A stretch of DNA of 64,000 nucleotides from Candidatus Poribacteria bacterium (GCA_965208325.1 OZ242326.1:2847363-2911362); one strand, 5' to 3'; positions 2,960 to 60,162 are shown, counted from the stretch's first letter. Numbers and translations are program-made. Notes: generated by a model from the sequence alone, not told the origin.

Positions 2960-2961
2960 GC

Positions 2962-8416: not shown

Positions 8417-8421
8417 TATAA

Positions 8422-15120: not shown

Positions 15121-17526
15121 CTACTTCATGATGAACATTTTCTGCGTATCAACGGAATCACCCGTTCTTAAACTATAGAAGTATACGCTGCTCGCAGCGC
15201 GAACGCCCGTATTCGTGCGCCCATCCCAATGTGCAGCCTCTCCCTGCTTGATATACCGTCCCCGCACTTTCACACCGAGATTTAGCGTGCGAACTAAACG
15301 GCCAGAGATATCGTAGATTTCAATCGAAACAGGTGAGTCCTCTGCCAATTCGTAAGGAATCCAAACGTCTGGATTGAAGGGGTTAGGGTAACTTTGCAGC
15401 AAGCGCGTGTGCAGCGGCGGCGCAGCAGAGGTATTCAGCGGAGTGAAGGCAGGCGTGATACCCTGCGCATCAATGCCCGGCCTTCCCATGAGGCCAACGG
15501 CGTTGACCGGAACTACGGCGTAAAAATAACGTATATTCTGTGGATCAAAACGAGAATCTTCGACATTAATGTCTTGAAATATGGTTACGTCTTCAAAACT
15601 GGTGTCAGTCGCATTGACGCGCCCAATAATATTGATATCCCCTTCAGGGATGCCGTTGCCGTCTCGATCCGCGGCAACAAGGACTTCCGCCGCATTCTGG
15701 AATGGTCGTGGGCTGTCAGTGTCATATATGGATGTATACCGTTTGCGGACTATAGCGACCTCTCGAATACCGCTCAAATCTTCAAGCGTCCATTGAACTA
15801 ATACCCCGCCCTCGCTGCCCTGTGACACCGAGGGAGTAGATAATACTCCCGCGGGCGGACGGCCTGCTATGTAACTCACCGACCCGCCAAACGCCGCTGA
15901 AATAAATCGTCCGGATACAGACCGGCCGCCTTCAACTACGACGCGTTCAACATCCGGACGAACATTGATTAGGATTAACGTGACCTTTTGAATCTCACCC
16001 CCAAAATCATTGAACGTGATTTGGGCTTCCTGGGATCGATGATACGTCAATGCCTCGCGAACTTCTGTTGTCCCATCCCGCTTTTCTACGGCGAATTTCG
16101 CCCCCCAGCCGCGCAGTCCTGTAACTTCATGCCGATCCAACTCCCCTTGAATGGCGTCGTGGTCTCCCGCAGAGAGTTGGTTCATGTCCATTGGAGCGAG
16201 ATCCGCGCCATCAACCTTGATGGCAAATTCGTCCATCACGCCATCCGGCTCGAAAACTATATAGCGCGCTGAAAACGGTTCGGGCATAGATTCCGAATCG
16301 AAATCAATGCGAACCGGGTAGCGCTGATGCACATCGCTGGGATGGATAGCCACTGGCGGGAACCGATGGCCGTTGAGGTAGTGCTCTCCGTCGTCTCGAT
16401 TGTAAGTGAAGTAATTCCATTCGGTGAACGTCTTAAATGCTTCAACAAGCGTCGTTCCATAATTCCGGAAGACACCTTCAAAGTTGCCGTACTCGCGGTA
16501 TGAGCCTTCGGTGGCGCCGCCGTAAAATTGCCTGACTATATCGACGCCGAACCGCTCCGCCATGTAAAATACGAAAATTACCGAACCGTACTCATGGTCG
16601 CCGACACGATTTCTGAGCGCAATGTCCGGCTGAAGAAACCAACGGCGCAACTGTCCAGAATAGTAGTTGTAAGCGTTAGTCTCGCCAATCTCGTCAGGGT
16701 CTGCAATGTCGTCAAGATCGTCAATCAAACCGCCGTCGTACACCTTTGACTCCGACCACGTCGCAGACGCCTCCATAAACCATGTCGGCATCAGCGCGTT
16801 ATAGGCATACTGCACGCCGTGGAAAAATTCATGTGCGCACGTCGTTTCAATAAACCGAACGGCTTCCGACTTCCCGAAATACAGGTGCATGCGAGAGTTG
16901 ATTCCGAACCATGGAGCCGTAGTTACGACCGTCGACAATACACGTCCATAGCTGCTGCTGCTGACAGTTATACCCAGTGCAGGGAACATAAACAGGTATA
17001 CGTCGTATTTATGGTTGCCTCCATTTACCTTAACCCAAAAATCGTCAAGCGGCGCTTTATAACCCATTAATTCTATCTGAACATGGTAAGATCGTTCTAG
17101 CGCATCGGCGCAGATATCCACGTAATCGGGAACTCCGTTCATCGGATTGAAGTCGTCGGGCGGAGGCGCATGGTGGCCAACCGTGGTGTAGTGGAGCCTG
17201 AAGTGCGGTGTGTCATACTTGTTGGGCAGATACACAGATCCAAAGAGGCTTCCCGGCGCACCAGGACGAAGGAATATACCCTGAAATTCCCTCTGATAGA
17301 TTGCTGGAAGGTGATGCCAATTTGCAGCGAGAATATTTAAGCTGTCCGTGAAGCACTCTTGAAGCTCGGACGGATCATAACTCGTTTTCAGGTTAATATA
17401 CTTTCGAGCCTCCCGAATTGCGCTGAACAACTCTGGATCGGGAGCTTGCGCTTCAACACACGATGCCGTAAATCCAAAAATGCTAATTATTGCCAATGCG
17501 GTTAAGCGAAAAGTCATCTTGTTCAC
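15121..17526 (-). CDS. Secreted putative zinc metalloprotease with a T9SS C-terminal sorting domain
   Basis: Signal peptide; an HEFFHGVQ (HEXXH) motif; C-terminus [14 protein letters not shown]...VYFYSLR...MFIMK matches the T9SS type-A CTD. Confidence 0.7.
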
Positions 17527-33953: not shown

Positions 33954-33971
33954 ACAAGTTGGTTAATTTTC

Positions 33972-34854: not shown

Positions 34855-34997
34855 GTTTCCTCTCCGTTAGAACCTGATGGAAAGTATGTTGCAGAGCCAT
34901 TGTTTGAATATTTGAGGGTCAAAATCATCGGATTTTCAAGGCATGTACCCCAAAATTGCCTCCCCCGAGGACGGACCTGGTCCATTGAAAAGGGCTC

Positions 34998-35456: not shown

Positions 35457-35923
35457 TTGGTGTCTCCTTGTTGTTTCGGAACGGTGTCAATCGTCATTTT
35501 CAATTTAAGCTTTTCTTTAATACGCTCTAAATAATCAGCCATCTGATAAACACCATGATACCGCCTCACATACCAGCCGCCTATTTCTACATCACTACGG
35601 CGTTTCCGAGGACGAAACACTACTTTAGGTAGAATAGGCGGAATCCTTGCAATGCCCACTAAGGCGAGCACCTCATGAAATGTCTTATACTCTGTGTTAT
35701 TTTCAACTATAGTGCCGTCTGCCATTGTGACAACCAAATGGCGGTTAGGTTCATCAGACTTTTTGGGGATAGATGATAACCCATTTACAAACTGCATAAT
35801 GACCTTACCGGTTGGACGCTGCTTCCCATACCTCTCTACGGCTTCAGAAATAGTGTCGATCAATTGCTTCCGTTTATTATCAGAGATTGGCATAAATCCT
35901 TCCTTTTTTGTGGAATTGTCCAA
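35453..35923 (-). CDS. Hypothetical protein
   Basis: ORF overlaps the downstream gene by 4 nt, suggesting an operon; no recognised domain. Confidence 0.3.
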   Translation of the reverse strand: MDNSTKKEGFMPISDNKRKQLIDTISEAVERYGKQRPTGKVIMQFVNGLSSIPKKSDEPNRHLVVTMADGTIVENNTEYKTFHEVLALVGIARIPPILPKVVFRPRKRRSDVEIGGWYVRRYHGVYQMADYLERIKEKLKLKMTIDTVPKQQGDTK

Positions 35924-36025
35924 TAAGAACCATTAGCGGACATCCCCCGCTCCCCGCCAAAAGTCCAAATTTGCGTTCTTTTATGACGGCTGTATATAGA
36001 ACTGTTATGTAGGCAGCCAGATACT

Positions 36026-36441: not shown

Positions 36442-39195
36442 TTACTTCACTATTGCCATGCGACGTAGTGATTGATAATCGCCCGATCGCAATTGGTAGA
36501 AATACACGCCGCTTGGCACAGTTTCACCGGACTGGTTTCTGCCGTCCCAATGCGCGGCTTGTGTCTGATTGGCGTAGAAGCCCGCGTCCCGATGCCCCAA
36601 ATCGAGTTGCCGCACTAGATTGCCCTGGACGTCATAAATCGTCAGCGTTACTTTGCCCGCGCGGGAGAGGTGGTACGGAATCCAGGTCTCCGGATTGAAC
36701 GGGTTGGGGTAGTTTGGCAAGAGCGCGGTCTCTTTCGGCGTCAAGGCTGCGAGGAGGTGTTTCAGCGTGAGAACGCCGCGCTGGTATTGCGCTGTGTTTT
36801 TGCCCGTCAGCTTGGCTTCGGTTAGCCAGTGTTCGACCATCACCGGGGACAGGTCTGTAGGCAACTGGACGCGGGCTGCCGGTGCAGCCGGTACGCTGTC
36901 TACCGCAGCGGCGACGGCGATAACGTCGTCGATGTCGACAACCCCATCCCCGTTGACGTCCGCCGATTCTTTGCCTGTCCGCCCGTAGTGCACTGCGACG
37001 TAAACAATGTCTAGACGATCCACGCTTCCGTCGCCGTTGGCGTCCGCGATAATGGGTGGAGGCTGAGTTTCGGCAACGGCGTGAAAGGTGATTTTCTCCA
37101 ACAATCCAACGGCGGATGCCTCGACAGAGTTTTTTCCCGGATTTTGCCCCAACGTCAGGGTAGTCTCCGCTTGCCCGCCGCTATCGGTCATTGCGCTTGT
37201 TGCACTGAGCTTGCCGCCGCCCACAGTGACTGTGAAAACAATTGGAACCCCTTCAATCGGGACGTGTTTCTCGTCCAGCACTGCCACGACGAACGGGTTT
37301 TCAAGCGCTTCGCCGGCGTACGCCCGTTGATCGCTCCCCGATTGGATGCGAATCCGCGGCGGTGGTCGGCTGTCAAAACCTACCTCAACTCTTCTTTCCT
37401 GTAAGGCAGGGATGTGTAGGTAAATTGAGGCGTAACTCAAGGGGTTTCCCTGCAGATGAACCTCGTCCCCATTACCCAATCCCGTATTGGCTACCAGCGG
37501 TGAAATGTCCGAGATGTTGTTGCGCGAAAGGTCCAGGATTGTAAGGTCGGTCAACCACGATATTGCCTTGATGTCCGAGATGTTGTTTTCCCAAAGATTC
37601 AACCGTCTCAGGTTGGTTGCCGCTTCGAGCCCAGTTAAATTGCTGATGTTTGCGTTAGCGGCGTCAAGCATATCATCAAGCGCCGCCATTTCCGCCGGGG
37701 CAATGGGTTCACCGGCTGTTTTGTTGAGGGCATTCTCAACCGCGGCACGGAGGTTCGGGTCGGGTATATGGATCGGAAGCCCCGCCATGGCGTTGAATGT
37801 GACCGTCTGCCCAATTCCAGCGGCGGACACCTCTACCGTGTTTTGTCCGATATTCGCGCCCAGTGTCAACACGCTCGCTGCACGGCCGCCCCGATCTGCG
37901 TGGGCGGACTCCACACTGAGCCTGCCGCCGCCGACGGCGACAGAGAATCTAACGGCAACCCCCTCAATCGGATTGCCGTTGTGCACATCTCGGACTTCAA
38001 CGACAAACGGGACGAGTAACGGTGTATCCGGCAAGCCGTGTTGGTTGTCTCCTGAGACTTTCGTTAACGGCTCTAATTTTTCCGAAAACAACGTAAAGTC
38101 TCTCCACGACACATTGCCATCCGTATCAATGGCTTCAATGGTAATCGGATGGGTAGTCGGATTAAAAAGGTTCGTGTTTCTGCTGTAAGGTAGGGAATGT
38201 GCATGGGGAATAACGCCGTCGTAATCAAAGGCAGCAGTTTCCTCTTGGTTTCCCCCCAACCCAAAACACGCCTTGACCGAACTGCCGTTGGGACTATCGG
38301 GTTGATTAACGTGTAAGATTACCTGGTGAAGTCCGTCAAAATCATGGAGGCGGGGACTGACAATGATATTACTTGCGAATGCTGAATATGAACGGGGCGA
38401 AATGAGTTCTATGGTGGGCGGCTCCCCCGCTTCAATTGGGGTGCTCTGATTGAAGTAGGTATGAACCGACAAATACACCGCATGGCATTGAGATAACCGC
38501 TTCTCATCCCGGGAACTAGGGCCATACGACATTACGTAGGCACCATCTCGGAAATCGTGGTAAAGTCCAAAGGCGTGTCCCAATTCGTGTGCGATTAGCC
38601 ACCAATCAAATGCACGCAAGCAAAACGCGAATCCGCCGCGTTTTGAATATGCGCGGCCTTGACCGCCATCAATATACGCCGTCTCAAGTGTGCCCGGTCG
38701 GTCGATGAAAACGAGATAAACGTTCTCATAAAGATTGAACGCTTCTTCAATCTCGCCAATTACAACAGGCGTACTGCCAAAGCCTTGTGGATAATGGCTG
38801 TCCGGGTATCTCCCGCCGACCTGATTCACTATCGGTTCACCGTAAGCGTCCGTTTCAACCCGGAAGGTTTGCCGTCCGTAGCCGTGCGCTTGCATCTGAT
38901 CGGCAAAAAAGCTTTGTGCGATGCTAAGCTGTTCCTTAATTCGTTTCACCACTTGTTCCCGATACGGGCGGTCATTGGGTAAAAAGTAAATTATGCGCAC
39001 GGTGCGTGTTGTTCCGACATTCAGAGCAAGGGTTTTGGAGCGGGCATCTGGGTGCGTGCCGCGCTTATGGTACTGATGTCCGGTAAACCCGCAGTAATGA
39101 GCTGCCGATTTAGGCGGGGCGGCAAGCGCGGCGGTTAGGTTAACAAGGCACAAAAGCACCGTGCAAAGCGATAACCGAAAAAATCGGATTTTCAC
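36442..39195 (-). CDS. Secreted multidomain metzincin-type zinc metalloprotease with Ig-like, leucine-rich-repeat and dockerin-like modules and a T9SS C-terminal sorting domain
   Basis: Signal peptide; HELGHAFGLYHD (HExxHxxGxxHD) motif; LRR segment (LRRLNLWENNISDI...LDLSRNNISDISPL); dockerin-like DANGDGSVD/DVNGDGVVD; C-terminal LLPNYPNPFNPETWIPY...YFYQLR...MAIVK. Confidence 0.8.
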   Translation of the reverse strand: MKIRFFRLSLCTVLLCLVNLTAALAAPPKSAAHYCGFTGHQYHKRGTHPDARSKTLALNVGTTRTVRIIYFLPNDRPYREQVVKRIKEQLSIAQSFFADQMQAHGYGRQTFRVETDAYGEPIVNQVGGRYPDSHYPQGFGSTPVVIGEIEEAFNLYENVYLVFIDRPGTLETAYIDGGQGRAYSKRGGFAFCLRAFDWWLIAHELGHAFGLYHDFRDGAYVMSYGPSSRDEKRLSQCHAVYLSVHTYFNQSTPIEAGEPPTIELISPRSYSAFASNIIVSPRLHDFDGLHQVILHVNQPDSPNGSSVKACFGLGGNQEETAAFDYDGVIPHAHSLPYSRNTNLFNPTTHPITIEAIDTDGNVSWRDFTLFSEKLEPLTKVSGDNQHGLPDTPLLVPFVVEVRDVHNGNPIEGVAVRFSVAVGGGRLSVESAHADRGGRAASVLTLGANIGQNTVEVSAAGIGQTVTFNAMAGLPIHIPDPNLRAAVENALNKTAGEPIAPAEMAALDDMLDAANANISNLTGLEAATNLRRLNLWENNISDIKAISWLTDLTILDLSRNNISDISPLVANTGLGNGDEVHLQGNPLSYASIYLHIPALQERRVEVGFDSRPPPRIRIQSGSDQRAYAGEALENPFVVAVLDEKHVPIEGVPIVFTVTVGGGKLSATSAMTDSGGQAETTLTLGQNPGKNSVEASAVGLLEKITFHAVAETQPPPIIADANGDGSVDRLDIVYVAVHYGRTGKESADVNGDGVVDIDDVIAVAAAVDSVPAAPAARVQLPTDLSPVMVEHWLTEAKLTGKNTAQYQRGVLTLKHLLAALTPKETALLPNYPNPFNPETWIPYHLSRAGKVTLTIYDVQGNLVRQLDLGHRDAGFYANQTQAAHWDGRNQSGETVPSGVYFYQLRSGDYQSLRRMAIVK

Positions 39196-39329
39196 CCCTT
39201 AGACTCCTGTTTTTGTATGGATTTTGATGGCTATAATAAAACCTATAATCATTTATACACTGCGGTAGGTGCGGTTAGGAAACCGTAGTGAAAGCGGGGC
39301 AAGATGCCCCGCCTACGGGTGTGCTGGCG

Positions 39330-42254
39330 TTATTTCACGATTACCATCCGCCGGAGCGCGTTATAATCGTCCGTTCGGAGTTGATAGAAATAGGCGCCGC
39401 TAGCGACGGCTTCGCCGTTTTCGTTCCTGCCGTCCCAATAGGCAGCGCGGGTTTTCTCGATATACACGCCCGCCCGTTGATGACCTAAATCCAACTGTCG
39501 AATTAGGGCGCCGTTTAAGTCGTAAATCGAGATTTGGACGTCCGAACCCGTCGCTAACCGGTAAGGTATCCAGGTCTCCGGATTAAACGGATTTGGATAG
39601 TTTGGCAGAAGTGCGGTCTCTTTCGGCGCCAAGACTGCGAGGAGTTGCTCCAACGTGAGAATGCCGCGCTGGTATTGCGGCGTGTTTTTGCCGGCCAGCT
39701 TGGCTTCGGTTAACCAGTTTTCGACCATTTCCGCGGTCAGGTCTCTAGGCATCGCCGCACGGGCTGCCGGCGCAGCGGCTACGCTGTCTACCGCGGCGGC
39801 GACCGCGATAATGTCGTCGATGTTCACAACGCCGTCGCCGTTGATGTCCGCTGCACCTTGGCTTGTCTGTCCGTAGTGCAATGCGACATAGACAATGTCT
39901 TGGACATCTACGCTGCCGTCACCGTTGGCGTCGGCGTCTTTGGCTTCGACGGTCTCATCTTCGGTTTCGTCATCCGGGTCTTTCGATTCGATCGGTTGCG
40001 GAGAGGCGTTAATGGCAATGGAGGACGGGCGATCCATGCCGCTTGCGATAACATCTTCAACGTTGGATGCGTCCAAATTGGCACGCCGGACTGTTTCATC
40101 ACGCCAATCTGTCCAATATATTTTTCGATTGTCGATATCTAAGTCTAAGCTGTGCACCCCCGCTAATTCTGTAACGACGTCTTCGACATTTGAACCATCC
40201 AAGTCGGCACGCTGGATTTTTCTCGCGGCAGCATCTGTCCAGTACATTTTCCCGTCTGCAACATCTAGGGCAATGCTGGTTGGCGCCTGCAATCCTGTGA
40301 CGAGGTCTTCGACATTTGTGCCATCCAAGTCGGCGCGCTGGATTTTATTCGTGCCGTCATCTGTCCAGTACATCTGACCGCCATCAACATCTAACGCCAA
40401 ACCGCTTGGAATGCGCAAACCGCGTGTCAGGAGGTCTTCAACGTTTGAACCGTCTAAGTCGGCACGTTGGATTTTATCGGTGCCGTTATCTGTCCAATAC
40501 ATCTTACCGGCCGCAACATCTAGGGCAATGTCTTTCGTCCCTTTCAATCCTTGTGTCACAAGGTCTTGGACGTTTGCGCCGTTCAAGTCGGCGCGTTGAA
40601 TTTTATCCGTGCCGGAATCTGTCCAGTACATGTGTCCGCCGGTAACATCTAGGGTTAAACCGCTTGGTTGTTGCAGACCGCGCTGAACTAGGGTTTCGAT
40701 GCGTGAAGCGTCGGAGCTGGCTGCGCGGATGCTCATTGTGCCGCGGTCGATCCAGTAAATGGCAAGCGGCTTCTGTTCACGGACGGCGGCGACGGGAACG
40801 TTTGCGGTGAGCGAACTGCCGCTGTAGCTTGCGATGCCGCCGGCGCGCACACTGAACGACAACGTCGCATTTGTGTCAAAGTCGGTGCCGTCAAAAGCGA
40901 GTACAATCGTAATCTGCGTGTCACTTTCGCGCCGAACCCTATTAACAGTAACACCTGCAATCCCGGAAACCATCACGGCGTTACTGATGCGGGACAAAGA
41001 CTGTTCCCATGCACCGTTCCTCAATGTGAGCGCCACATCGCTTCCGTCTAACACCGTCTCTGTTAAGGGCGCCGAAGTTGAGGCGTGTAGCGTCGGTTCC
41101 TTTTTCGCCTCCACTGTAATACGCACGCTCGCAGAACAGTTGTTAGTTTTGTCACTCTCGTTTGCAACACTATCGACGCATGCGCCGAAATAGTAGGTTC
41201 CGGCAGATGTTGGGGCCGTAAGACTGATGCTCTCGGCACTCCTCCCATTAGCATTAAGCGCGCTAACACTGGCCGTGCCGACCGCTGTATCGCTAGTCGA
41301 AATCGTGGAATCGGCCGAGCGGTAGTAGCGCAGCGTGGTCGCGGCCGCACTGCTTGTGCCGCTATTTCTGACGGCGGTGGACAGCGTAAAATTTTCGCCG
41401 GCGGTTAAGTCGCTTTTACTGACTGTCGGACGGTCAACGATTAAGTCCGGCGAGTCCGATTGAACCTCCACCGTGATACGCACGCCGGCGGAGCAGTTGT
41501 TGTCAGAATTGCTCTCGTCCGCAACTGCGTCAACACAAGCGCCGTAGTAGTAGGTGCCGGCAGATGCAGGGGCGGTGAGACTGATACTCTCGGCACTCGT
41601 CCCATTTGCATTCAGCGCGTTAACGCTGTCCGTGCCGACTGCTGTATCGCTGGACGAAATCGTGGCATCGGTCGAGCGATAGTAGCGCAGCGTGGTGGCA
41701 GCGGCACTGCCAGTGCCGCTATTTCTGACGACCGTCGACAGCGTAAAGCTTTCGCCAGGCGTTAAGGTGTTTTTACTCACGGTTGGGTGGTCAACGACTA
41801 AATCCGATTGTTCAGATTCGGCACAGGTTGGCGCGTTGCTAAAACGTGTCACAACCCAAACTTCACCACTCTTTACAAAGCGGAACCAATTGAAATCAAC
41901 TTCTGTAGGTTCTGAAATAAGAACATTTGTTGCACCTGCGAGTTGTACAACACCGTATCCGTCACTTCTATGAGCAACCAAAAGTAGACTCTCGGCACCG
42001 CTGCTGTTCACAACAAGGTCTGCTGCAAAGGTGTCTCTCGGAAATTGAAGACCGACACAGATTTCCGGTGCACGGTCTATTAAGTCTCCTGCTAAAGCCG
42101 TGTCTCCGGCCTTAATTGCCGCTTGCAAATCGCTGTATTTTGAGCTTACAGGAACTTGACTCTGGCTGAAACCAACATCTGGCAACCCACACACCAACAC
42201 TATTACGATGAGAATTGACAAGGCAACTTTTCGACTTATGATAAACATGGCCAT
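39330..42254 (-). CDS. Secreted protein with two CARDB-like domains, a six-bladed YWTD beta-propeller, a dockerin-like module and a T9SS C-terminal sorting domain
   Basis: Six repeats of (M/I)YWTD..xxKIQRADLDGSNV; two near-identical roughly 100-aa CARDB-like repeats; C-terminal 200 aa about 75 percent identical to 36442-39195. Confidence 0.8.
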   Translation of the reverse strand: MAMFIISRKVALSILIVIVLVCGLPDVGFSQSQVPVSSKYSDLQAAIKAGDTALAGDLIDRAPEICVGLQFPRDTFAADLVVNSSGAESLLLVAHRSDGYGVVQLAGATNVLISEPTEVDFNWFRFVKSGEVWVVTRFSNAPTCAESEQSDLVVDHPTVSKNTLTPGESFTLSTVVRNSGTGSAAATTLRYYRSTDATISSSDTAVGTDSVNALNANGTSAESISLTAPASAGTYYYGACVDAVADESNSDNNCSAGVRITVEVQSDSPDLIVDRPTVSKSDLTAGENFTLSTAVRNSGTSSAAATTLRYYRSADSTISTSDTAVGTASVSALNANGRSAESISLTAPTSAGTYYFGACVDSVANESDKTNNCSASVRITVEAKKEPTLHASTSAPLTETVLDGSDVALTLRNGAWEQSLSRISNAVMVSGIAGVTVNRVRRESDTQITIVLAFDGTDFDTNATLSFSVRAGGIASYSGSSLTANVPVAAVREQKPLAIYWIDRGTMSIRAASSDASRIETLVQRGLQQPSGLTLDVTGGHMYWTDSGTDKIQRADLNGANVQDLVTQGLKGTKDIALDVAAGKMYWTDNGTDKIQRADLDGSNVEDLLTRGLRIPSGLALDVDGGQMYWTDDGTNKIQRADLDGTNVEDLVTGLQAPTSIALDVADGKMYWTDAAARKIQRADLDGSNVEDVVTELAGVHSLDLDIDNRKIYWTDWRDETVRRANLDASNVEDVIASGMDRPSSIAINASPQPIESKDPDDETEDETVEAKDADANGDGSVDVQDIVYVALHYGQTSQGAADINGDGVVNIDDIIAVAAAVDSVAAAPAARAAMPRDLTAEMVENWLTEAKLAGKNTPQYQRGILTLEQLLAVLAPKETALLPNYPNPFNPETWIPYRLATGSDVQISIYDLNGALIRQLDLGHQRAGVYIEKTRAAYWDGRNENGEAVASGAYFYQLRTDDYNALRRMVIVK

Positions 42255-46082: not shown

Positions 46083-46091
46083 TTTAGCGCG

Positions 46092-46962: not shown

Positions 46963-49716
46963 CTACTTCATAATCAGCATCTTCCGGCTGGCTGAAAAGT
47001 CCGGGGTATGCAATTTGTAGAAGTAAACACCAGAAGCAACCCGCTCACCCATGTTGTTACGCCCGTCCCAATACGCGGCGCGCGCCCGGCTATTATAAAA
47101 TCCCGCTGATTGAAAACCGATCGACAGCGTGCGAACCAAATTACCCGTTGTATCGTATATGGATATGGATACAGGACTGTCTTCCGTGAGTTGATATGGA
47201 ATCCACGTCTCCGGGTTGAACGGATTCGGGTAGTTCTGCAACAACTGAGTCTGCTTCGGTTGACCGATGGTATCCAGCCTGACAGACAATACTGCGTTTT
47301 CCAAGTGTTCAGGGGCCACTTTGAATCTCAGGGTTGGCGATTCAATATTTCCATCCAGACCAATGACGCGCACTTCAATCACGTCTCCGGCTTCGACAAC
47401 GCTCCGCCGCAACAAGTCTGCGGTCGCAGCGGCAAAGTAATCACCTTGCACCGGCGCGGTTATGATCTTGTTTGTTCTCAGGTTGAGGACGACAACTTGA
47501 TAGCCGTCAAATGACTGTACACCTTCCAAATGCCCACTCACAACGAACGCCCACGCGTTTTGAGCAACCCCCCTGTCCCCCCTTATCAAGGGGGTAATGG
47601 TGGGTGCCGCCGCGGCAGGCTCTGTTTGGCTAGTCCACGGCGCTCCGACGAAGGCGAAATTGCGGGTTTCCGGGACATTGACGATATAACCGCCGCCGCC
47701 TTCGATTGGAAAACCGTCGTTCGGCGCGCCCGGCGTCCACGCCACGAAACGCTGGTTCGGCGCATCGATCGTGATGACGGTTGTCGCTCCTGTCAGCCCG
47801 GCAAGCGACTTGGCGCTCATCGGGGTTGACGGCGCCAACGGCACGGAAATCATGTTCAATCCTTTCGGCAGCGTGACGTTGTAGGCGTTACTGAAATACT
47901 CACTCACTTCTTCGGCAACCGGTCTGGCGATAAACCCGTGTCGGCGTCCATCCGCCGAGTCATAGTGGCCGACGACAGAGCCGTCTTGATTGATATTCCA
48001 ACCCTCCGTGCCAACACTGCCGGGAACCTGCAATTCGTGCGGCTCCCCGAATCTGCCGACGTATGTGCGCGGGACATCACCCACTTGTTTGGCTCGACCA
48101 ACGATAATCCCTACATCGTTGATACCGTGCATAAAAATGTACTCGAAATCCGCGGCTGCTAAGATGTCGGCAAAACCAAATCTGCCATCCGGAGCACGCG
48201 CGTATGCCTGATATGTGCCGTCACTGTCCACATAGCTGCCCACAACGGCACCTGACGCACTCACAAAGTCGGCATAAGTTTCCACTGCTCCGGGGACTTC
48301 AACGATGGTTTCCCCGGAAAAGCCTCGCCGCACGCCGGCAGCGTCGATAAAATTGCCCGTCAGTGCCCCGGTCGCATCGGAAATACCGTATATCTCCGTT
48401 TGGACCGCATCCGGAAAATCATATTGCCGCAGTTTGCCATTTTTCAAGACGACACCGTGGTAAAGCCCCTGGTTGTCCTCGTAATGTCCGGCGGCAGTCC
48501 CATCGTTACCGAGCGCATAGAAATAAGTGTTCTTGGAATCAGGAAAATCATGCCTCGTAAAAACGCCATCAATCAGCGTAAAGGCGACTATTTTTTCACC
48601 ATCGGCAGACCGCGTGTAGCCGGCGTAATCCTCAAAATCGCTGCTCGCCGTCAACGCTAAAAATTCAACACCGGGAACATCAATACTCTCAAAAGTATAA
48701 GTGTAGTTGAGGATGTCAGGCGGTACAACGGGCCGATCGCCGCCCGTTGCAGCAGTCCTAGCGATAAACCCGTGTCTGCGCCCATCCGCCGAGTCATAGT
48801 ATCCGACGACAGAACCATCCTGATTGATATTCCAGCCGTCTGTGATAACACTGTCCGGTACCCGCAATTCATGCAGCCCGCCGAATCTGCCGACGTATGT
48901 GCGCGGGATGTCACCCACCTGTTTGGCGCGAACCACTGCAACGCCTAAATCGTTGACGCCGTATGGATACAGATACTCCAAATTCGATACGTCGAGAGCG
49001 TCGGCAAATATAAACCTGCCATCAGGGGCACGCACGTATGCCTGATATACACCGTCACTGTCTACGTAACTGCCTACCACGGCGCCCGATGCGGTCGAAA
49101 AAAAGGCATGAGTTTCCGCTGCTCCGGGGACTTCAACGACGGTATCCCCGGAGAAACCGCGGCGAACACCGGCATCGTCGATAAAATTGCCGGTCAGCAC
49201 CCCGGTCGCGTCAGAAATACCGTATATCTCCGTTTGGACGGCATCCGAAAAATCGTATCGCCGAAGCTCGCCATTTTCCAAGACGACACCGTGATACAGA
49301 CCATCGCTATCTTGGTAGTGTCCCGCGGCTGTCCCGTCATTACCCAACGCATAGAAGTGAGTTTTCTGCGAGCCGGGGAAATCATGGCGCATAAAAACAT
49401 CGTCAATGAGCGTAAAGCCGACCTCTCTTTCGCCATCGTCACTTTTCGTATATCCGGCGTAATCCTCAAAGTCGCTGCTCGCTGTCAGCGCCAAAAAGCC
49501 CACACCCGGAACATCAATAGTTTCAAAAGTATAGTTGGCGCCGGCGGATGCGCCTCCGGATTCATTGTTCGTTTGTGCGGCGGAATCCCATGGGAAAAAG
49601 GATTTGAGGCACATATACAACGTAAATATGTAAAACAAAAAATTCGGTTTTGTCTGAGTAATCGACATTAAAAACTCCTTTGTTGTATTGACTAAAGACG
49701 GCGGTTGGGTGTTCAT
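46963..49716 (-). CDS. Secreted HAF-like extracellular-repeat protein with a T9SS C-terminal sorting domain (paralog A); the probable start is the internal Met MSITQTK
   Basis: Internally duplicated roughly 300-aa modules with a recurring G..N..G.VVG.Y.DS.G..HGF pattern (HAF-repeat-like); C-terminal NYPNPFNPETWIPYQL...YFYKLHT...MLIMK. Confidence 0.7.
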   Translation of the reverse strand: MNTQPPSLVNTTKEFLMSITQTKPNFLFYIFTLYMCLKSFFPWDSAAQTNNESGGASAGANYTFETIDVPGVGFLALTASSDFEDYAGYTKSDDGEREVGFTLIDDVFMRHDFPGSQKTHFYALGNDGTAAGHYQDSDGLYHGVVLENGELRRYDFSDAVQTEIYGISDATGVLTGNFIDDAGVRRGFSGDTVVEVPGAAETHAFFSTASGAVVGSYVDSDGVYQAYVRAPDGRFIFADALDVSNLEYLYPYGVNDLGVAVVRAKQVGDIPRTYVGRFGGLHELRVPDSVITDGWNINQDGSVVGYYDSADGRRHGFIARTAATGGDRPVVPPDILNYTYTFESIDVPGVEFLALTASSDFEDYAGYTRSADGEKIVAFTLIDGVFTRHDFPDSKNTYFYALGNDGTAAGHYEDNQGLYHGVVLKNGKLRQYDFPDAVQTEIYGISDATGALTGNFIDAAGVRRGFSGETIVEVPGAVETYADFVSASGAVVGSYVDSDGTYQAYARAPDGRFGFADILAAADFEYIFMHGINDVGIIVGRAKQVGDVPRTYVGRFGEPHELQVPGSVGTEGWNINQDGSVVGHYDSADGRRHGFIARPVAEEVSEYFSNAYNVTLPKGLNMISVPLAPSTPMSAKSLAGLTGATTVITIDAPNQRFVAWTPGAPNDGFPIEGGGGYIVNVPETRNFAFVGAPWTSQTEPAAAAPTITPLIRGDRGVAQNAWAFVVSGHLEGVQSFDGYQVVVLNLRTNKIITAPVQGDYFAAATADLLRRSVVEAGDVIEVRVIGLDGNIESPTLRFKVAPEHLENAVLSVRLDTIGQPKQTQLLQNYPNPFNPETWIPYQLTEDSPVSISIYDTTGNLVRTLSIGFQSAGFYNSRARAAYWDGRNNMGERVASGVYFYKLHTPDFSASRKMLIMK

Positions 49717-51648: not shown

Positions 51649-54417
51649 CTACTTCATAATCAGCATCTTCCGGCTAGCTGAAGAGATCGGGGTATGCAAT
51701 TTGTAAAAGTAAACACCAGAAGCAACCTGCTCACCCATGTTGTTACGGCCGTCCCAATACGCGGCACGCGCCCGGCTATGATAGAAACCTGCGGACTGAA
51801 AACCGACCGGCAGCGTGCGAACCAAATTACCCGTAGTATCGTATACGGATACCGTCACAGGACTATCTTCCGCGAGCTGATACGGTATCCACGTTTCCGG
51901 GTTAAACGGATTCGGGTAGTTCTGCAACAACTGCGTCAGTTTCGGTTTACCGATACCGTCAAGCCTGACGGACATTACGGCGTCTGCCAGGTGTTCAGTG
52001 GTCACTTTGAAACTTACGGCTTGAGATTCAACAACCCCGCCCGGTCCGATAACGTGCAACTCCACCACATCCCCGATCTCGACAACGCTCCGCCGCGACA
52101 GGTCCGCCGTTGCAACGGCGAAGTAATCGCCTTGCACCGGCGCAGCAATGGTGCTGTTTGTTCGCAAGTTACGGACGACAACGTGATAGCCGTCAAACGC
52201 GGGTTTAACTTCGTAGGTAGGGTTGGGTTCCCCAACCCTACCGCTTACAACGAACGCCCACGCGTTTTGAGCAACCCCCCTGTCCCCCCTTATCAAGGGG
52301 GTAATTGTGGGTGCCGCTGCGGTAGACTCTGTTTGATTTGTCCACGGCGCACCGACGAAGGCGAAATTGCGCGTTTCCGGGACATTGACGATATAACCGC
52401 CGCCGCCTTCGATTGAGAAGCCGTCGTTCGGCGCGCTTGGTGTCCAGGCGATGAAACGCTGGTTTGCCGCATCGATCGTAATAACGGTTGTCGCTCCTGT
52501 CAGCGCTGCGAGCGACTTGGCGCTCATGGTAGTTGGCGGCGCCAACGGCACGGAAATCATGTTCAATCCTTTCGCCAGCGTGACGCGGTAAGTGTTACCG
52601 AAATAATCACTCACTGCCTCGGCAACGGGTCTGGCGATAAACCCGTGCCTGCGTCCATCTACCGAGACGTAGTTTCCGACGACAGAGCCGTCCTGATTGA
52701 TATTCCACCCCTCCGTGCTGACGCTGCCCGGCACCTGTAATGCAGAGCGTCCACGCGCCGATCCGATATAGGTGCGTGGGACATCACCGATCCGTTTGGA
52801 GCGGGCAACGAAAATTCCTGCAGTGTTGATTGCATGGAAAAAATAGTATTCGAGGTTATCGGCATTTTCCAAGTCGATAGATGTAAATTGGCCGTGCGCA
52901 TGTATATATCCGTGATAAAGCCCCTGAGCGTCGACGTAACTCCCTACCAGCCGCCCGGCAGCCACAAAGTCCGCGAAGGTCTCCGAGGCGCCGGGGACTT
53001 CAATGACGGCATCGCCGGTGAATCCACGACGCACCCCTTGAGCGTCCGTGAAATTTCCTGTCAGCACACCTGTTTCATCAGAAATTCCGTATATCTCAGT
53101 TTCAACAGCACCGGGGAAATCGTATTGCGTAAGTACCCCGTTTTCCAAGATAACACCGTGAAATGACCCCTGGCTGTCTTGGTAATGTCCGGCGGCGCGG
53201 CCATCATTACCGAGTGCGTAGAAATAGGTGTTTTCCGCGTTCGGGAAATCGTACCTGGTAAAAACGCCGTCAATGAGCGTAAAGGCAACCATCTTTTGAC
53301 CGTGAGCACTCCTCGTGTAGCCGGCATAGTCCTCGAAGTCGCTGCTCGCAGTCAAATGTAGAAATTCTACCCCCGGCACATCAATACTCTCAAACGTATA
53401 GTCAGAGAAGGTCGGCTGCAGCGCAGGCGCCCCGGCGGGTCGGGCGATGAATCCGTATCTGCGTCCATCGGGTAGATTGTAGTATCCGACGACAGAGCCG
53501 TCCTGATTGATGTTCCAACCTTCCGTGCTCACGCTCTCCGGGAATTGTAATTCCACTCGCCCGCGGAATGTACTGACATGGGTGCGCGTGACATCACCGA
53601 CAAATTTGGAGCGGGTAACGTATACGCCCGCCTTGTTGATGCCGTGCACAAGAACGAATTCGATGTGTGCGGCGTTTGGGATGTCAACAGTCCGATACTC
53701 GCCATCCGGAGTAAGTACGTAAGTGTGATAGAGTCCGTCCATATCAATGTAACTGCCGACGAGCCGTCCTTCAGCCACAAAGTCGGCGAAGGTCTCTGCG
53801 GCACCGGGCACCTCAATGATGGTGTCCCCTGTGAACCCGCGCCGAACCCCATCAGCGGCGATAAAATTACCCGTCAGCGCACCTGTTTCATCAGAAATCC
53901 CGTATATCTCCGTTTCAACGGAGCCGGGGAAATCGTATTGCCGGAGTTCGCCATTTTCTAAGACGACACCGTGATATTGACCATCGCTATCTTCGTAGTG
54001 TCCCGCGGCTGTCCCGTCATTACCCAACGCATAGAAGTAGGTGTTCATTGAATCCGGGAAATCATGGCGCGTAAAAACGCCATCTATGAGCGTGAAGGCG
54101 ACCATTTTGCCGCCGTCCGTACTTTTCGTGTAGCCTGCATAGTCCTCGAATTCGCTGCTGGCGGTCAATGCTAAAAAGTCTACATCCGGAACTTCAATAC
54201 TCTCGAAGGTATAGTCGGCAGCGGTTTCAGTGTTGTCTTGTGCAGCCGTGTCTTTTAGGAACAAGGAATTGAGGCAAAAAAACAACGTAAACGCGTTAAA
54301 CAAGAAACTTTTTTTAATCTGAGTGGTTATCATGAAAAACTCCTTTTGCGTAAAACGTGATGGGTAATTCGTAATGAGTAAACGTAATGCGTAATGAGAA
54401 AAAGCAGATGCTGCCAA
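51649..54417 (-). CDS. Secreted HAF-like extracellular-repeat protein with a T9SS C-terminal sorting domain (paralog B); the probable start is the internal Met MITTQIKK
   Basis: Roughly 70 percent identical to 46963-49716 overall; 3' end and terminator about 90 percent identical at the nucleotide level. Confidence 0.7.
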   Translation of the reverse strand: MAASAFSHYALRLLITNYPSRFTQKEFFMITTQIKKSFLFNAFTLFFCLNSLFLKDTAAQDNTETAADYTFESIEVPDVDFLALTASSEFEDYAGYTKSTDGGKMVAFTLIDGVFTRHDFPDSMNTYFYALGNDGTAAGHYEDSDGQYHGVVLENGELRQYDFPGSVETEIYGISDETGALTGNFIAADGVRRGFTGDTIIEVPGAAETFADFVAEGRLVGSYIDMDGLYHTYVLTPDGEYRTVDIPNAAHIEFVLVHGINKAGVYVTRSKFVGDVTRTHVSTFRGRVELQFPESVSTEGWNINQDGSVVGYYNLPDGRRYGFIARPAGAPALQPTFSDYTFESIDVPGVEFLHLTASSDFEDYAGYTRSAHGQKMVAFTLIDGVFTRYDFPNAENTYFYALGNDGRAAGHYQDSQGSFHGVILENGVLTQYDFPGAVETEIYGISDETGVLTGNFTDAQGVRRGFTGDAVIEVPGASETFADFVAAGRLVGSYVDAQGLYHGYIHAHGQFTSIDLENADNLEYYFFHAINTAGIFVARSKRIGDVPRTYIGSARGRSALQVPGSVSTEGWNINQDGSVVGNYVSVDGRRHGFIARPVAEAVSDYFGNTYRVTLAKGLNMISVPLAPPTTMSAKSLAALTGATTVITIDAANQRFIAWTPSAPNDGFSIEGGGGYIVNVPETRNFAFVGAPWTNQTESTAAAPTITPLIRGDRGVAQNAWAFVVSGRVGEPNPTYEVKPAFDGYHVVVRNLRTNSTIAAPVQGDYFAVATADLSRRSVVEIGDVVELHVIGPGGVVESQAVSFKVTTEHLADAVMSVRLDGIGKPKLTQLLQNYPNPFNPETWIPYQLAEDSPVTVSVYDTTGNLVRTLPVGFQSAGFYHSRARAAYWDGRNNMGEQVASGVYFYKLHTPISSASRKMLIMK

Positions 54418-57873: not shown

Positions 57874-60162
57874 TTACTTGACGATTACCATCCGCCGTAA
57901 TGCGGTATACTCCCCCGCACGGAGTTGATAAAAATACAGACCACTCGCTACGTGCTCACCGAATTCGTTTGTACCATCCCAATACGCGGCTTTCGTCCTA
58001 TCCGTATAATTGCCCGCTGCTTGATGCCCTAAATCCAACCAGCGCACCAGCTCACCTTTGGAATCGTATATCGAAATTTGCACATCGGCGTGGTTCGACA
58101 GATGGTACGGTATCCACGTCTCAGGATTAAACGGATTCGGGAAATTCGGCAGCAGTTCAGCCGACTGCTGCGGCGCAGTGTCTCCACGTTCGATGACTTC
58201 GTCCGTGTCTTCCATATCCTCTAAATCGTCCAATGCCACACCCAAATCCCACAGGTGAATCACATTGTCGTAACCGCCGCTTGCAAGTATCCCGCCCCGG
58301 CTGACAGCTATACTCCGACCCCACTCGGTATGGCGTTCTAGCACGTGGAGCGGCGTGCCCGCTGCCGAGTCCCAAAGCCTGACGCTATTATCCTTACCCG
58401 TACTGGCAAGTATTTCACCATTCGGGTGGAATGCCGTGCTGAATACCCAGCCGGTATGCCCGGCAAGAACGCGGCTTGATTCTGTCTCGAGATTCCACAA
58501 CCGGACGCTGCCATCCGCGCCGGCACTGGCAAGCGTGTTGCCATCATCGAACGCGACGCTCAATACCTGTTCCTCATGTCCGGAGAATTCCTTTGTGATT
58601 TCACCGGTTTCAGGATTCCACAGCCGGACAATCGCATCGCCGCCGCTGCTGGCGAGCATGTCCCCGCTCGGATGGAAGGCGACGCTCCAGGCGCGAACCG
58701 AGTGCGCACGTATGCGATGCTTGCGCTCAACTCTACTCAAGTTGGAAATGTCCCAAATGGAAATATGCCCATACTCTGTCCCAGTTGCCAGGGTGTTCCC
58801 GTCCGGACTGAAGTCTATGCCCCAAACTGTACCGCCCGGTCTGATAATTCGTTTGATTCGCCCCGTATCAAGGTCCCACAACAACACTCTGGCATCCATG
58901 CCGCCGCTCGCCAATGTGTTGCCGTCCGGACTGAATGCAACCGAGCGCACCGAAAACCGATGACCTTCAAGCGTCCGTATGAGTTCCCGTGTTTCAACCT
59001 CCCACAACCGGACGGTTTTATCTTTGTGCGCACTGGCAAGGATTTCCCCGCTCGGACTGAAAGCGACGCCGTATACCCGCTGCGTCCCGGTATCGCCCGG
59101 ATTCGATGTAGCTTCAATTGTGTCAATGTATGTGGGTTCGGGAAATAACGGCGTTGCTGTAGCAGTAAACACAACCGTCTCATCTACTCCGGCGGCTGAC
59201 GCTTCCACGGCAAACTCGCCCGGACTATCACCAAGCGTGAGCCTGGCAGAGGCTTGCCCAGCGGCGTCTGTGGTGGACGTTGGATGGTTCAATGCGCCAA
59301 CCCCGGTGAGGACGGTAAAGGTGACGGTCGTGCCCGCTAGCGGGGCGTCGTACTGGTCGCTAACCTTTACGACAAACGGGTCTGCCAACACGCTGCCGAT
59401 GAGTCCCGTCTGGTTATCTCCGGAGATTTTCTCCAATCGCACCGCCTTCGGGCGTGAGGGGTCAACGGTTACGGTAAATTCTGTATAGATGTCGGGTGTA
59501 TCGCTTGGATAGGCTTTGACGATGTATTGTCCCGCTGCATCGGTGCCGAGGGTGAGCGTCGTCGTGGCGCGTCCATTTGCATCTGTCGTTGCCGTCACAG
59601 GATTCAACGATGCGCTGGATTCGTCTCCGGAGTCAATAGAAAAAGTCAAATCTACGTCCGGCATGGGGTTTCCGTCCGCATCCCGCAATTCGACAGTAAG
59701 TCTCTGGCTTTCCCCGGGGCTAGTGACATGATTGTCGTCCGAGACATTTACCAGTTTCGGCGATGGCGGAGTTGGACACGATGGCTTACCAGTTATTATA
59801 AAGTTAATATTAGAGGTGGGGCGGGGATCTCTAGTGAGCCGCACTGTGACTGTATATGTGCCGCAGGCATTCGCATTAAAGTGCAATTCAAACCATGCAC
59901 GGCCATCGTCATCAGTTGCGGATGGGGCAGACAGCGTCGCAGTCCCGTTGTTTGGACTGAGGCCCCACGTCAAGGCCCCTCCTATAGGGTTGCATGTGGG
60001 CGCGCAAAGCACCAGCCCGAATTCGTAGCGAACGCCCGGCCATCCGGGCTCAACTTGCAGGGTATGACTCTCACTGGCAACCGCACCTAACGGTACTGAG
60101 AGACAGATAAACAGTAGATAGATGAGACCAATTGTTTGCTTTTCGATAGGGGCGCTTGACAC
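57874..60162 (-). CDS. Secreted protein with bacterial Ig-like domains, a seven-bladed WD40 beta-propeller and a T9SS C-terminal sorting domain
   Basis: WD40 repeats (GH..V.SVAFSPDGNTLASGG.D..V.LWD); Ig-like N-terminal domains; C-terminal LLPNFPNPFNPETWIPYHL...YFYQLR...MVIVK. Confidence 0.8.
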   Translation of the reverse strand: MSSAPIEKQTIGLIYLLFICLSVPLGAVASESHTLQVEPGWPGVRYEFGLVLCAPTCNPIGGALTWGLSPNNGTATLSAPSATDDDGRAWFELHFNANACGTYTVTVRLTRDPRPTSNINFIITGKPSCPTPPSPKLVNVSDDNHVTSPGESQRLTVELRDADGNPMPDVDLTFSIDSGDESSASLNPVTATTDANGRATTTLTLGTDAAGQYIVKAYPSDTPDIYTEFTVTVDPSRPKAVRLEKISGDNQTGLIGSVLADPFVVKVSDQYDAPLAGTTVTFTVLTGVGALNHPTSTTDAAGQASARLTLGDSPGEFAVEASAAGVDETVVFTATATPLFPEPTYIDTIEATSNPGDTGTQRVYGVAFSPSGEILASAHKDKTVRLWEVETRELIRTLEGHRFSVRSVAFSPDGNTLASGGMDARVLLWDLDTGRIKRIIRPGGTVWGIDFSPDGNTLATGTEYGHISIWDISNLSRVERKHRIRAHSVRAWSVAFHPSGDMLASSGGDAIVRLWNPETGEITKEFSGHEEQVLSVAFDDGNTLASAGADGSVRLWNLETESSRVLAGHTGWVFSTAFHPNGEILASTGKDNSVRLWDSAAGTPLHVLERHTEWGRSIAVSRGGILASGGYDNVIHLWDLGVALDDLEDMEDTDEVIERGDTAPQQSAELLPNFPNPFNPETWIPYHLSNHADVQISIYDSKGELVRWLDLGHQAAGNYTDRTKAAYWDGTNEFGEHVASGLYFYQLRAGEYTALRRMVIVK

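Follow-up and report, generated by a model that had tools for sequence, protein, structure and literature searches.

Two neighbouring surface-protein genes of a sponge-associated Candidatus Poribacteria bacterium, referred to here as A and B, close unrelated upstream parts with the same kind of 3' module, and the locus raises the question of whether that module was passed from one gene to the other, in which direction, and how long ago. The window, i.e., the whole stretch of DNA analyzed, comprised 64,000 nt. Both ORFs were found as earlier placed (strand and lengths in Table 1), in tandem on the same strand with 134 nt between them. By Pfam and NCBIfam, gene A was read in order as a putative signal peptide, zinc metallopeptidase (HELGHAFGLYHD), Big_1, LRR, Big_1, dockerin, hairpin and CTD, with both the zinc-peptidase motif and the FlgD_ig/TIGR04183 CTD found. 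A twin of gene A (P0121, 99% identical) was found on a 421-kb ENA contig. Gene B was read by Pfam as a putative signal peptide, two CARDB domains, a 6-bladed YWTD (Ldl_recept_b) propeller, dockerin, hairpin and CTD. The domain calls of the original prediction (peptidase/LRR for A, CARDB/YWTD for B, dockerin and CTD for both) thus hold. The N-termini of A and B were signal-peptide-like by eye (MKIRFFRLSLCTVLLCLVNLTAALA... and MAMFIISRKVALSILIVIVLVCG..., respectively). No terminator or promoter was found in the 134-nt spacer by a consensus scan, and no RNA genes were found across the window (Rfam gathering threshold, ARAGORN). A GC hairpin, lacking a T-run, was noticed by eye after the gene B stop codon.

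Table 1. Positions of genes A and B, of the segments of their shared module, and of the other CTD-bearing genes, counted from the first nucleotide of the window.
Feature	Position	Strand	Remarks
Gene A	36442..39195	-	917 aa ORF
Gene A dockerin	36892..37047	-	Module residues 1-52; Ca-loop repeats DANGDGSVDRLD, DVNGDGVVDIDD
Gene A Ala/Pro linker + two-helix hairpin	36739..36891	-	Module residues 53-103; ...VMVEHWLTEAKLTGKNTAQYQRGVLTLKHLLAALTPKETA
Gene A CTD entry motif LLPNYPNPFNPETWIPY	36688..36738	-	Module residues 104-120; 3' edge of exchanged tract
Gene A CTD beta-sandwich	36445..36687	-	Module residues 121-201; TIGR04183 match, Foldseek
Gene B	39330..42254	-	974 aa ORF
Gene B dockerin + hairpin + invariant motif	39576..39935	-	Counterpart of A 36688-37047 (offset +2888)
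Gene B CTD beta-sandwich	39333..39575	-	TIGR04183 match
CTD-bearing gene	15121..17526	-	801 aa; most divergent CTD in window
CTD-bearing gene	46963..49716	-	917 aa; no dockerin/hairpin; paralogue of 51649-54417
CTD-bearing gene	51649..54417	-	922 aa; paralogue of 46963-49716
WD40 + Big_1 gene	57874..60162	-	CTD but no dockerin/hairpin; background CTD family

The two proteins were aligned by BLASTP over their final 201 residues only (71% identity, gap-free, E 1e-82), with no significant similarity upstream of the module, which bears out the earlier view that the upstream parts are unrelated. Over the last 201 codons identity was 71% for protein and 76% for DNA, and blastn returned a single 612-nt match (75.8%). 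The original prediction had called the module near-identical, at about 75% protein and 85-88% DNA identity; the protein figure was too high and the wording overstated, and DNA identity near that range (83%) was reached in the dockerin/hairpin part alone, not throughout, with 62-67% in the CTD. The example given for it (36660-36840 versus 39570-39750) was 22 nt out of register, but the first interval does give 83% when paired with 39548-39728, in line with the offset from A to B of +2888. On the 5' side, identity in 60-nt windows rose from ~30% to 83% at A 37047 / B 39935; pairwise alignment therefore showed the identity step to be real, and the alternative of uniform divergence was not seen. 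Segment by segment, the dockerin of A and B was 79% identical in amino acids (pS 0.41), the linker/hairpin segment 72% (pS 0.27) and the CTD 59-60% (pS 0.70), and the CTD entry motif was invariant or near-invariant across 104 sequences.

The module was modelled as a whole with AF2 (pLDDT 86.5, pTM 0.74) and as dockerin plus hairpin alone (pTM 0.79). Dockerin helices were predicted at residues 17-25 and 45-54, the Ala/Pro linker region (residues 58-66) was disordered, hairpin helices were placed at 74-87 and 92-108 (pLDDT ~90 or above), and the strands of the CTD, which forms the extreme C-terminus and ends at the stop codon, fell within 127-205 (pLDDT mostly ~90 or above). What had been described as a conserved linker is indeed conserved, but it is confidently predicted to be a folded two-helix hairpin; in the models it appears packed on the dockerin and seems to form one unit with it. 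No Pfam, NCBIfam or PDB match to the hairpin was found by profile searches and Foldseek. The dockerin of gene A passed Dockerin_1 (PF00404) with 26.0 bits, above the cut-off of 22.9; that of gene B, with 16.8 bits, fell below it. Foldseek of the dockerin half against the PDB gave, as its top six matches, dockerins of cohesin-dockerin complexes (target TM 0.31-0.70, or 0.61-0.70 for the five dockerin-only chains; superposition rmsd 1.3-2.6 Å in five of the six), with E-values of 0.06-1.3, weak on account of the small size of the domain. The CTDs passed TIGR04183 (A 29.5, B 28.7 bits; cut-off 23) and PF13860 FlgD_ig (A 40.3, B 37.3; cut-off 27) and fell just under the cut-off of 27 for PF18962 (A 25.7, B 25.1). 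Structural matches to the CTD were FlgD Ig-like domains, the CTDs of PorU (6za2) and PorZ (5m11), and those of NucA and RemA within translocon complexes (8glk, 8gl6).

The module is a tripartite cassette, made of a type-I-like dockerin, an Ala/Pro linker with the hairpin, and a T9SS type-A/FlgD-Ig-like CTD. Its dockerin, hairpin and motif were matched by at least 1,495 database proteins. In a contig scan of which the best 80 loci were kept, the full-length genome matches listed were all from Poribacteria MAGs, with a best cross-genome dockerin-hairpin identity among them of 55%; the cassette is provisionally regarded as restricted to Poribacteria. At 72 listed loci the module lay inside an ORF open for 162-1,666 codons upstream, and the distance from dockerin to stop was 187-226 codons, mostly ~200 (70 loci with a complete ORF). 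Cassette proteins were mostly WD40 and LRR proteins: the N-terminal body was WD40 in 33 of 54, the rest being LRR, YWTD, metallopeptidase+LRR and LRR+cohesin. The bulk of the resemblance between A and B is therefore this family-wide cassette. Stand-alone mobile cassettes had been considered, as the top 120 matches were all of 219 aa or less; one of these (L001) proved to be the tail of a WD40 gene broken by a frameshift, and free-standing modules are contradicted by the 72 loci at which the ORF continues upstream for 162 codons or more. Many database fragments with the cassette were frameshifted gene calls, and one apparent orphan module (L002) was seen.

Nor was the CTD particular to this pair, as six genes of the window carry it (Table 1). 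When 98 CTDs were compared with the orthologues of B excluded, the commonest bootstrap nearest neighbour of the B CTD was not A but the CTD of the WD40 gene, at 57877 (38% of replicates). Conversion of the B CTD from that nearby gene (70% aa) was considered and is unsupported, because pS between the two is saturated at 0.72.

Against this background the A-B module was a mosaic. Dockerin plus hairpin stood at 75% aa and 83% nt identity (pS 0.33, dS 0.43), with a phylum median of 50% aa, and exceeded the 99th percentile (71%) of 4,257 background pairs. The CTD, at 60% aa and 62-67% nt identity (pS 0.70, saturated; dS ~2), sat at the background median of 61% in the same 4,257 pairs, and the CTDs of A and B were no closer to each other than to those of other species. 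A max-chi2 breakpoint fell just past NPETWIPY, at A 36671-36681 (permutation P ≤ 0.001), with third-position identity of 75% to its left and 39% to its right; taken by segment, third-position identity was 76% in the tract versus 44% in the CTD. Bootstrap resampling gave B as the nearest neighbour of A in 97.7% of replicates for dockerin-hairpin versus 8% for the CTD. Of 20 other adjacent pairs, 15 had a dockerin-hairpin pS of 0.6-0.84, so synonymous sites in this segment are not generally constrained. The tract specifically common to A and B is thus dockerin, hairpin and NPFNPETWIPY, ~360 nt (A 36688-37047, B 39576-39935), its boundaries being based on 201 codons of a single gene pair. The whole module had originally been taken as shared; this stands for those three parts and fails for the CTD proper, which is at background divergence.

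Polarity was determined from the families of the two genes. The A family comprised 80 proteins with a coherent module of their own (within-family medians of 69% for dockerin-hairpin and 76% for CTD), to which the module of gene A was only 43% and 52% identical, respectively, with the switch in gene A at about residue 728. The A-family module type reads TDARALEV...KRG, RLAEDAFVTLTIYD. The B relatives, with N-terminal identities of 98% (orthologue P0248), 90% (orthologue P0255), 67% and ~55-60%, all carried the TEA(K/E)L(T/S)GK...Y(Q/R)RG type. Since the A family has a different module and the relatives of B carry the A/B type, the transfer ran from the B lineage, as donor, to A. Comparison of module against gene family, as had been suggested, thus gave discordant segments, with A an outlier to the module of its own family. 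No orthologue of A with the ancestral A-family module beside B was found; the sponge-metagenome contig L086 stops before the A module.

With respect to age, dockerin-hairpin pS was 0.33 for both A-B and A-B86, 0.10-0.18 for B-B86, and ~0.6 from B to L083 or L087, and A was equidistant from B and its 90% orthologue. In a four-way comparison of two strains, no site with A=B and A'=B' was found that would point to ongoing conversion. With a pS of 0.33 and a dS of ~0.4 the exchange is old, and it took place before the three sampled strains diverged. The CTD of A is also unlike the A family (52%), so a conversion of dockerin-hairpin only is not the whole story, and this CTD calls for either a further event or a donor outside the sample; among the 293 CTDs searched no donor was found, the closest relative reaching 67%.

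The reading that best fits these results, to which a probability of about 0.72 was assigned, is that A took its dockerin-hairpin tract from the B lineage by gene conversion, in an old event, the unit having a presumed role in export and docking. Under this reading the ~360-nt tract came to gene A from the B lineage, B being its tandem neighbour, most likely through non-reciprocal homologous recombination. The probable anchors are the first Ca-binding loop on the 5' side and NPFNPETWIPY on the 3' side, which are the two best-conserved islands of the cassette, and the A and B copies have diverged independently since then. The cassette, the mosaic, its polarity and its relative age are results of the analysis, and the mechanism, the anchors, export and docking are inferred.

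A one-step fusion was weighed as an unlikely alternative, in which a duplicate of the entire B 3' end (dockerin, hairpin and CTD) became attached to an A-family body, possibly when the tandem genes underwent unequal crossing-over, and the A CTD was later overwritten by a third CTD gene or diverged unusually fast. It would explain why the CTD of A stands apart from the A family (52%, where family members share 76%) and leans slightly to B-family CTDs (0.60-0.67 versus 0.51-0.62 in the switch-point profile), and it suits genes lying in tandem on one strand 134 nt apart, as well as the adjacency of module genes at 19 of 84 Poribacteria loci scanned. However, in the same gene pair CTD pS is saturated at 0.70 with dockerin-hairpin at 0.33, and as this synonymous excess cannot come from protein-level selection, fusion still requires further recombination; among the 293 CTDs no donor was found (best 67%). 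Far less probable, and largely refuted, is plain old paralogy with no exchange, by which A and B would be alike solely through the cassette carried by every such gene of the phylum, their higher dockerin-hairpin identity marking an ancient and strongly constrained module subtype. The cassette is phylum-wide, the TEAKL..YQRG hairpin subtype occurs in other genomes too (L083, L084, P0327), and the hairpin of A is nearly as similar to that of L083 (70%) as to that of B (72%), so the case for a more recent A-B link leans on synonymous sites. At those sites, however, A-B pS was 0.27-0.41 versus 0.56-0.62 for A-L083, and divergence in the tract was two-fold below that of the CTD. Plain paralogy is further opposed by the outlying position of A relative to the coherent, different module of its own family, the significant internal breakpoint, the bootstrap-supported discordance of nearest neighbours, and the pS of 0.6-0.84 in most other adjacent pairs.

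Convergence, with A and B selected for the same cohesin partner and their sequences drawn together, was judged highly improbable. A cohesin domain does exist in a poribacterial module protein (L010), and dockerin specificity residues co-evolve with cohesins in cellulosomal systems, which would favour it; such selection works at the amino-acid level and does not reach synonymous codons, and the third-position contrast between tract and CTD speaks strongly against it. The chance of an assembly artefact, in which the repeated module was collapsed or made chimeric in the MAG, was considered close to negligible. Copies of the cassette abound in these genomes, and many database fragments are frameshifted calls, but the same A-B arrangement and mosaic recurred in an independent assembly (L085, 97.4% nt identity), gene B and the start of gene A were present again in the third, sponge-metagenome contig, and the copies are only 76-83% identical, which is well below the level at which assemblers collapse copies.

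Whether the products are exported, as the label T9SS cargo given to both genes supposed, can be addressed in part. The CTD passes TIGR04183 and supports the label, but a study of poribacterial single-cell genomes reported no Por structural genes (Kamke et al., 2014, PMC3909097), and none of the T9SS machinery (SprA/Sov, PorV, PorU, PorZ, GldK/L/M/N) was found among the window ORFs scanned. A and B are therefore best called putative T9SS cargo, judging from the CTD alone. The same study had already noted a T9SS-type CTD in Poribacteria, on WD40 proteins among other eukaryote-like ones. In the literature searched, the repeats and the CTD were described, with no fixed dockerin-hairpin-CTD cassette and no exchange between genes, and no paper linked Poribacteria to dockerins or T9SS machinery. 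The cohesin of the poribacterial LRR protein L010, at residues 688-798, matched PF00963 at 34.7 bits (cut-off 24.1), and no cohesin was found in the window ORFs scanned. In the proposed mechanism the CTD would direct outer-membrane crossing, and dockerin-hairpin would stay on the mature protein and could dock to cohesin-bearing surface partners. If dockerin-hairpin is a docking unit, its swap would retarget the protease/LRR body of A to the partner of B, and the A-B case would be a clean example of possible rewiring of docking specificity.

The exchange is real but fairly ordinary recombination. Recombination-driven diversification of secreted effectors had been proposed; the identity step and recombination rather than uniform paralogy were upheld, but the event is old and shows no ongoing conversion, so there is no evidence of active diversification. 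Modules are normally inherited with the gene family, the A and B families each carrying a coherent type; shuffling therefore looks occasional and does not resemble a general engine of effector diversification. What is new is that the CTD is one of three parts of a fixed cassette, beside a dockerin and a predicted folded hairpin that lacks annotation, and that this cassette, found on more than a thousand proteins, is normally inherited within families and can on occasion be exchanged between neighbours. A bolder and rather doubtful extension is that the cassette defines a Poribacteria-specific export-and-assembly system, with a multiprotein cohesin-dockerin surface scaffold facing the sponge. 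Were this true, eukaryote-like repeat proteins (WD40, LRR, YWTD, proteases) would leave the cell by a route that is either highly divergent or independent of T9SS and that recognizes the NYPNPFNPETWIPY-led CTD, the hairpin, not described before, would be a specificity or processing element, and unit swaps such as that in A would rewire scaffold membership. The results as a whole bear on how sponge symbionts bring their eukaryote-like repeat proteins to the interface with the host, and the cassette offers handles in its cohesin-dockerin pairing and its C-terminal processing site.

Among known systems, the nearest to the CTD are the T9SS type-A CTDs (TIGR04183/PF18962), as in Porphyromonas gingivalis gingipain, PorU and PorZ, and the FlgD Ig-like fold (PF13860). 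In common with the type-A CTD, that of A and B is a beta-sandwich of ~80-95 residues at the extreme C-terminus of multidomain proteins with a putative N-terminal signal peptide; it differs in that the dockerin-hairpin unit precedes it and the phylum-invariant NYPNPFNPETWIPY motif opens it, and type-A systems differ in that the host phylum here is outside Bacteroidota/FCB and Por structural genes are reported absent. The dockerin resembles type I dockerins of cellulosomal and non-cellulosomal cohesin-dockerin systems (PF00404) in its two tandem 12-residue DxNxDGxVDxxD Ca loops with a helix after each, but it is followed by the conserved, unmatched two-helix hairpin and is carried on WD40, LRR, YWTD and protease bodies rather than on carbohydrate-active enzymes. 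The exchange itself resembles gene conversion between tandem paralogues (same-strand neighbours, an island-bounded tract, lower dS inside it, discordant phylogenies), and differs from homogenization or programmed variation in being a single old event (dS ~0.4) that passed a putative docking unit from one gene to another, the two being otherwise unrelated. A further likeness, in the same phylum, is to the eukaryote-like repeat proteins of sponge symbionts (WD40, LRR and LDL-receptor class B/YWTD in Poribacteria; Kamke et al., 2014), to whose classes A, B and their relatives belong.

Comparison of genes A and B, two adjacent ORFs, indicates that one old segmental exchange put the dockerin-hairpin unit of gene B into gene A. 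The two are separated by a 134-nt spacer; the original prediction had placed both ORFs exactly, and profile matches bore out its domain assignments. Gene A encodes a HELGHAFGLYHD zinc peptidase, Big_1 and LRR, and gene B two CARDB and six YWTD (Ldl_recept_b) matches, each followed by a dockerin and a FlgD_ig / TIGR04183 CTD. The upstream parts are unrelated, as had been claimed: BLASTP of the full ORFs aligned the last 201 residues alone (71% identity, 0 gaps, E 1e-82), with no significant protein similarity outside them. At the DNA level, blastn gave a single 612-nt match (75.8%), and the breakpoint check by alignment, proposed with the prediction, placed an identity step from ~30% to 83% (60-nt windows, nt) at A 37047 / B 39935. 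The similarity of the 3' module is thus real, and "near-identical" was an overstatement (71% aa, 75.8% nt); the example pairing was off by 22 nt, as 36660-36840 matches 39548-39728 (83%). Overall, the observation was partly confirmed and its interpretation partly supported.

Coordinates of genes A and B and of further features in the window and related loci (L numbers)
Feature	Position	Strand	Description
Gene A	36442-39195	minus	ORF, 917 aa
Gene B	39330-42254	minus	ORF, 974 aa
Tandem array	29731-30759		Intergenic; 321-nt unit, 3.2 copies, 96% matches; repeats also in L085, a related strain locus
Strain-variable block	~30866-35947		Directly downstream of gene A; GC 0.44-0.45 (low), small ORFs only; L085 (97.4%-identical strain) has an unrelated 3.5 kb instead, including a TonB_C gene (82% identity to window 55217-56087)
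Strain hot spots	41300-41900, 45800-46400		21-53 differences/300 nt vs 1-7 across most of the block (97%-identical strains); the former falls in gene B's duplicated CARDB domains
g46963	46963-49716	minus	Full-length paralogue of g51649 (70.6% aa; CTD 89% aa); no dockerin or hairpin
g51649	51649-54417	minus	Paralogue of g46963
CTD gene region	15121-60162		Six CTD-family genes within 45 kb; also TonB-dependent receptor, TonB_C protein, PAS histidine kinase; looks like a surface-protein-rich region
B86 (L086)	1985-4897		Gene B orthologue; CTD pS vs gene B lowest of three segments
B-like gene (L083)	4856-8465		CARDB, YWTD, module; another Poribacterium; apparently interrupted by opposite-strand DDE transposase (6010-6807) and frameshifts
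LRR protein (L010)	2541-5603		Poribacterial; cohesin (PF00963, 34.7 bits) and dockerin-hairpin-CTD cassette
Orphan ORF (L002)	5968-6603		Apparent dockerin-hairpin-CTD ORF without signal peptide or N-terminal body; stop codon 11 codons upstream, AT-rich spacer in front; possible remnant or silent copy

The module was modelled by AlphaFold2 from a 104-sequence alignment (pLDDT 86.5, pTM 0.74). Two-helix dockerin, disordered Ala/Pro stretch, well-defined two-helix hairpin and beta-sandwich were predicted, therefore the "linker" of the original prediction is modelled as a folded element. Dockerin and hairpin modelled without the CTD gave pTM 0.79, which suggests that they form a single compact unit. 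In structure searches, solved dockerins resembled the dockerin half, and the beta-sandwich resembled genuine T9SS CTDs as well as the Ig-like domains of FlgD; the hairpin had no structural match.

Between A and B, the dockerin and hairpin were 82.5% identical in nucleotides and 74-75% in amino acids (synonymous divergence pS 0.33, dS 0.43), and the CTDs 67% and 68%, or 60% aa without the invariant motif (pS 0.70, dS ~2). A breakpoint was located at A 36671-36681, directly after the invariant NPETWIPY motif (max-chi-square, permutation p ≤ 0.001), with third-position identity of 75% to its left and 39% to its right. With this breakpoint and the identity step, divergence is not uniform along the pair. 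Against a background of 4,257 between-locus pairs, the dockerin-hairpin identity (75% aa) exceeded the 99th percentile (71%), and the CTD identity (60%) was close to the median (61%). B was the nearest neighbour of the A dockerin-hairpin in 97.7% of bootstraps and of the A CTD in only 8%; the B CTD was most often nearest to that of the WD40 gene 18 kb off (38% of replicates, 98 CTDs compared, B orthologues not among them). Synonymous sites were saturated in every CTD pair of the window, the g46963/g51649 paralogues excepted. A low dockerin-hairpin pS is not the rule: of 20 further adjacent pairs, 15 gave 0.6-0.84.

The N-terminal 716 residues of gene A were used as query, recovering a twin (P0121, 99%) and a large family of the same architecture at ≤56% identity. 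Eighty of these A-family proteins have their own coherent module type (medians: dockerin-hairpin 69%, CTD 76%), to which gene A is only 43% and 52% identical, respectively. The hairpin type TEA(K/E)L(T/S)GK...Y(Q/R)RG is common to A, B and all B relatives (P0248 98%, P0255 90%, P0327 67%, L083 and L084 ~55-60%). Similarity along gene A switched from the A to the B family at ~residue 728 and stayed there until ~827, the CTD portion being ambiguous between the two. The atypical module, the shared hairpin type and this switch together make the B lineage the source of the dockerin-hairpin tract and gene A its recipient. None of 293 CTDs came close to that of A (best 67%), which likewise differs from the A-family CTD.

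The tract edges fall on the cassette's two best-conserved islands (first Ca-binding loop, NPFNPETWIPY motif), consistent with homologous recombination or gene conversion between genes in tandem on one strand whose cassettes had already diverged. Alternatively, an A-family body could have been fused to a duplicated B 3' end, with later turnover of the CTD; both gene conversion and fusion need at least one further event for A's CTD. Module genes were adjacent in 19/84 Poribacteria loci scanned, L055 and L008 each hold a pair with N-terminal parts only ~43% identical and modules 87-88%, and the L023 pair has similar modules on unrelated N-terminal parts. For g46963/g51649, pS was 0.63-0.72 in the 5' half and 0.24-0.44 in the 3' third, which suggests 3'-biased homogenisation of nearby paralogues. 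Together these support recurrent exchange of 3' ends in these genomes; that each family keeps a coherent module type shows such exchange to be occasional.

A 97.4%-identical strain (L085) has the same mosaic at its syntenic locus, and the B-A adjacency was kept on sponge-metagenome contig L086. For dockerin and hairpin, pS was 0.33 for both A-B and A-B86 (B86 being a 90% orthologue) and ~0.6 for B vs L083 or L087. Between B and B86, it was 0.18 in the N-terminal body, 0.10 in the dockerin-hairpin and 0.00 in the 76-codon CTD; the last value reflects either recent 3'-end exchange between strains or unusual constraint. From these values, the A-B exchange is older than this species-level clade and younger than deeper splits. 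A four-way polymorphism comparison (A and B, two strains) gave no sign of ongoing exchange. What is present of the recombination originally proposed is one old segmental exchange, of an occasional kind. The pair illustrates module exchange neatly; the evolutionary process is ordinary, and the event neither recent nor ongoing.

The CTD is not peculiar to A and B, as six genes of the window carry it, and at least 1,495 proteins matched dockerin, hairpin and first CTD motif, one of them labelled in its source as a Candidatus Poribacteria protein with a T9SS sorting domain. In a DNA-level scan sampling one genome per species, full-length matches were all from Poribacteria MAGs among the matches listed, and the cassette is provisionally limited to Poribacteria among these. 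At 72 loci, the module lay within an ORF open 162-1,666 codons upstream of the match, and dockerin start to stop codon spanned 187-226 codons, mostly ~200 (70 loci with complete ORF). The ~200-aa database "proteins" are mostly fragments; L001 is the 3' end of a frameshifted WD40 gene. N-terminal bodies were WD40 propellers in 33/54, the others being LRR arrays, one YWTD propeller, metallopeptidase+LRR and one LRR+cohesin protein. Dockerin-hairpin-CTD is thus a phylum-wide C-terminal cassette, a useful handle on repeat-protein display by sponge symbionts. Its CTD component was already reported; no description of the three as a unit was found.

The same CTD occurs on poribacterial eukaryote-like proteins (Kamke et al. 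2014, PMC3909097). The A and B CTDs resemble those of T9SS proteins in scoring above the curated TIGR04183 threshold, in fold and in position, but the study that described it reported no structural genes for Por secretion in poribacterial single-cell genomes (Kamke et al. 2014, PMC3909097). Because a literature search found no later paper settling this, "T9SS cargo" is used as a working analogy, not as established membership. The same search found no paper linking Poribacteria to dockerins. The A module has the sequence and fold of dockerins, whereas the B dockerin falls below the Pfam cut-off. Because A is dockerin-like in both respects and a cohesin occurs in a poribacterial module protein (L010), surface docking by cohesin-dockerin pairing would be plausible; cohesin and dockerin on that same chain hint at self-assembling networks.
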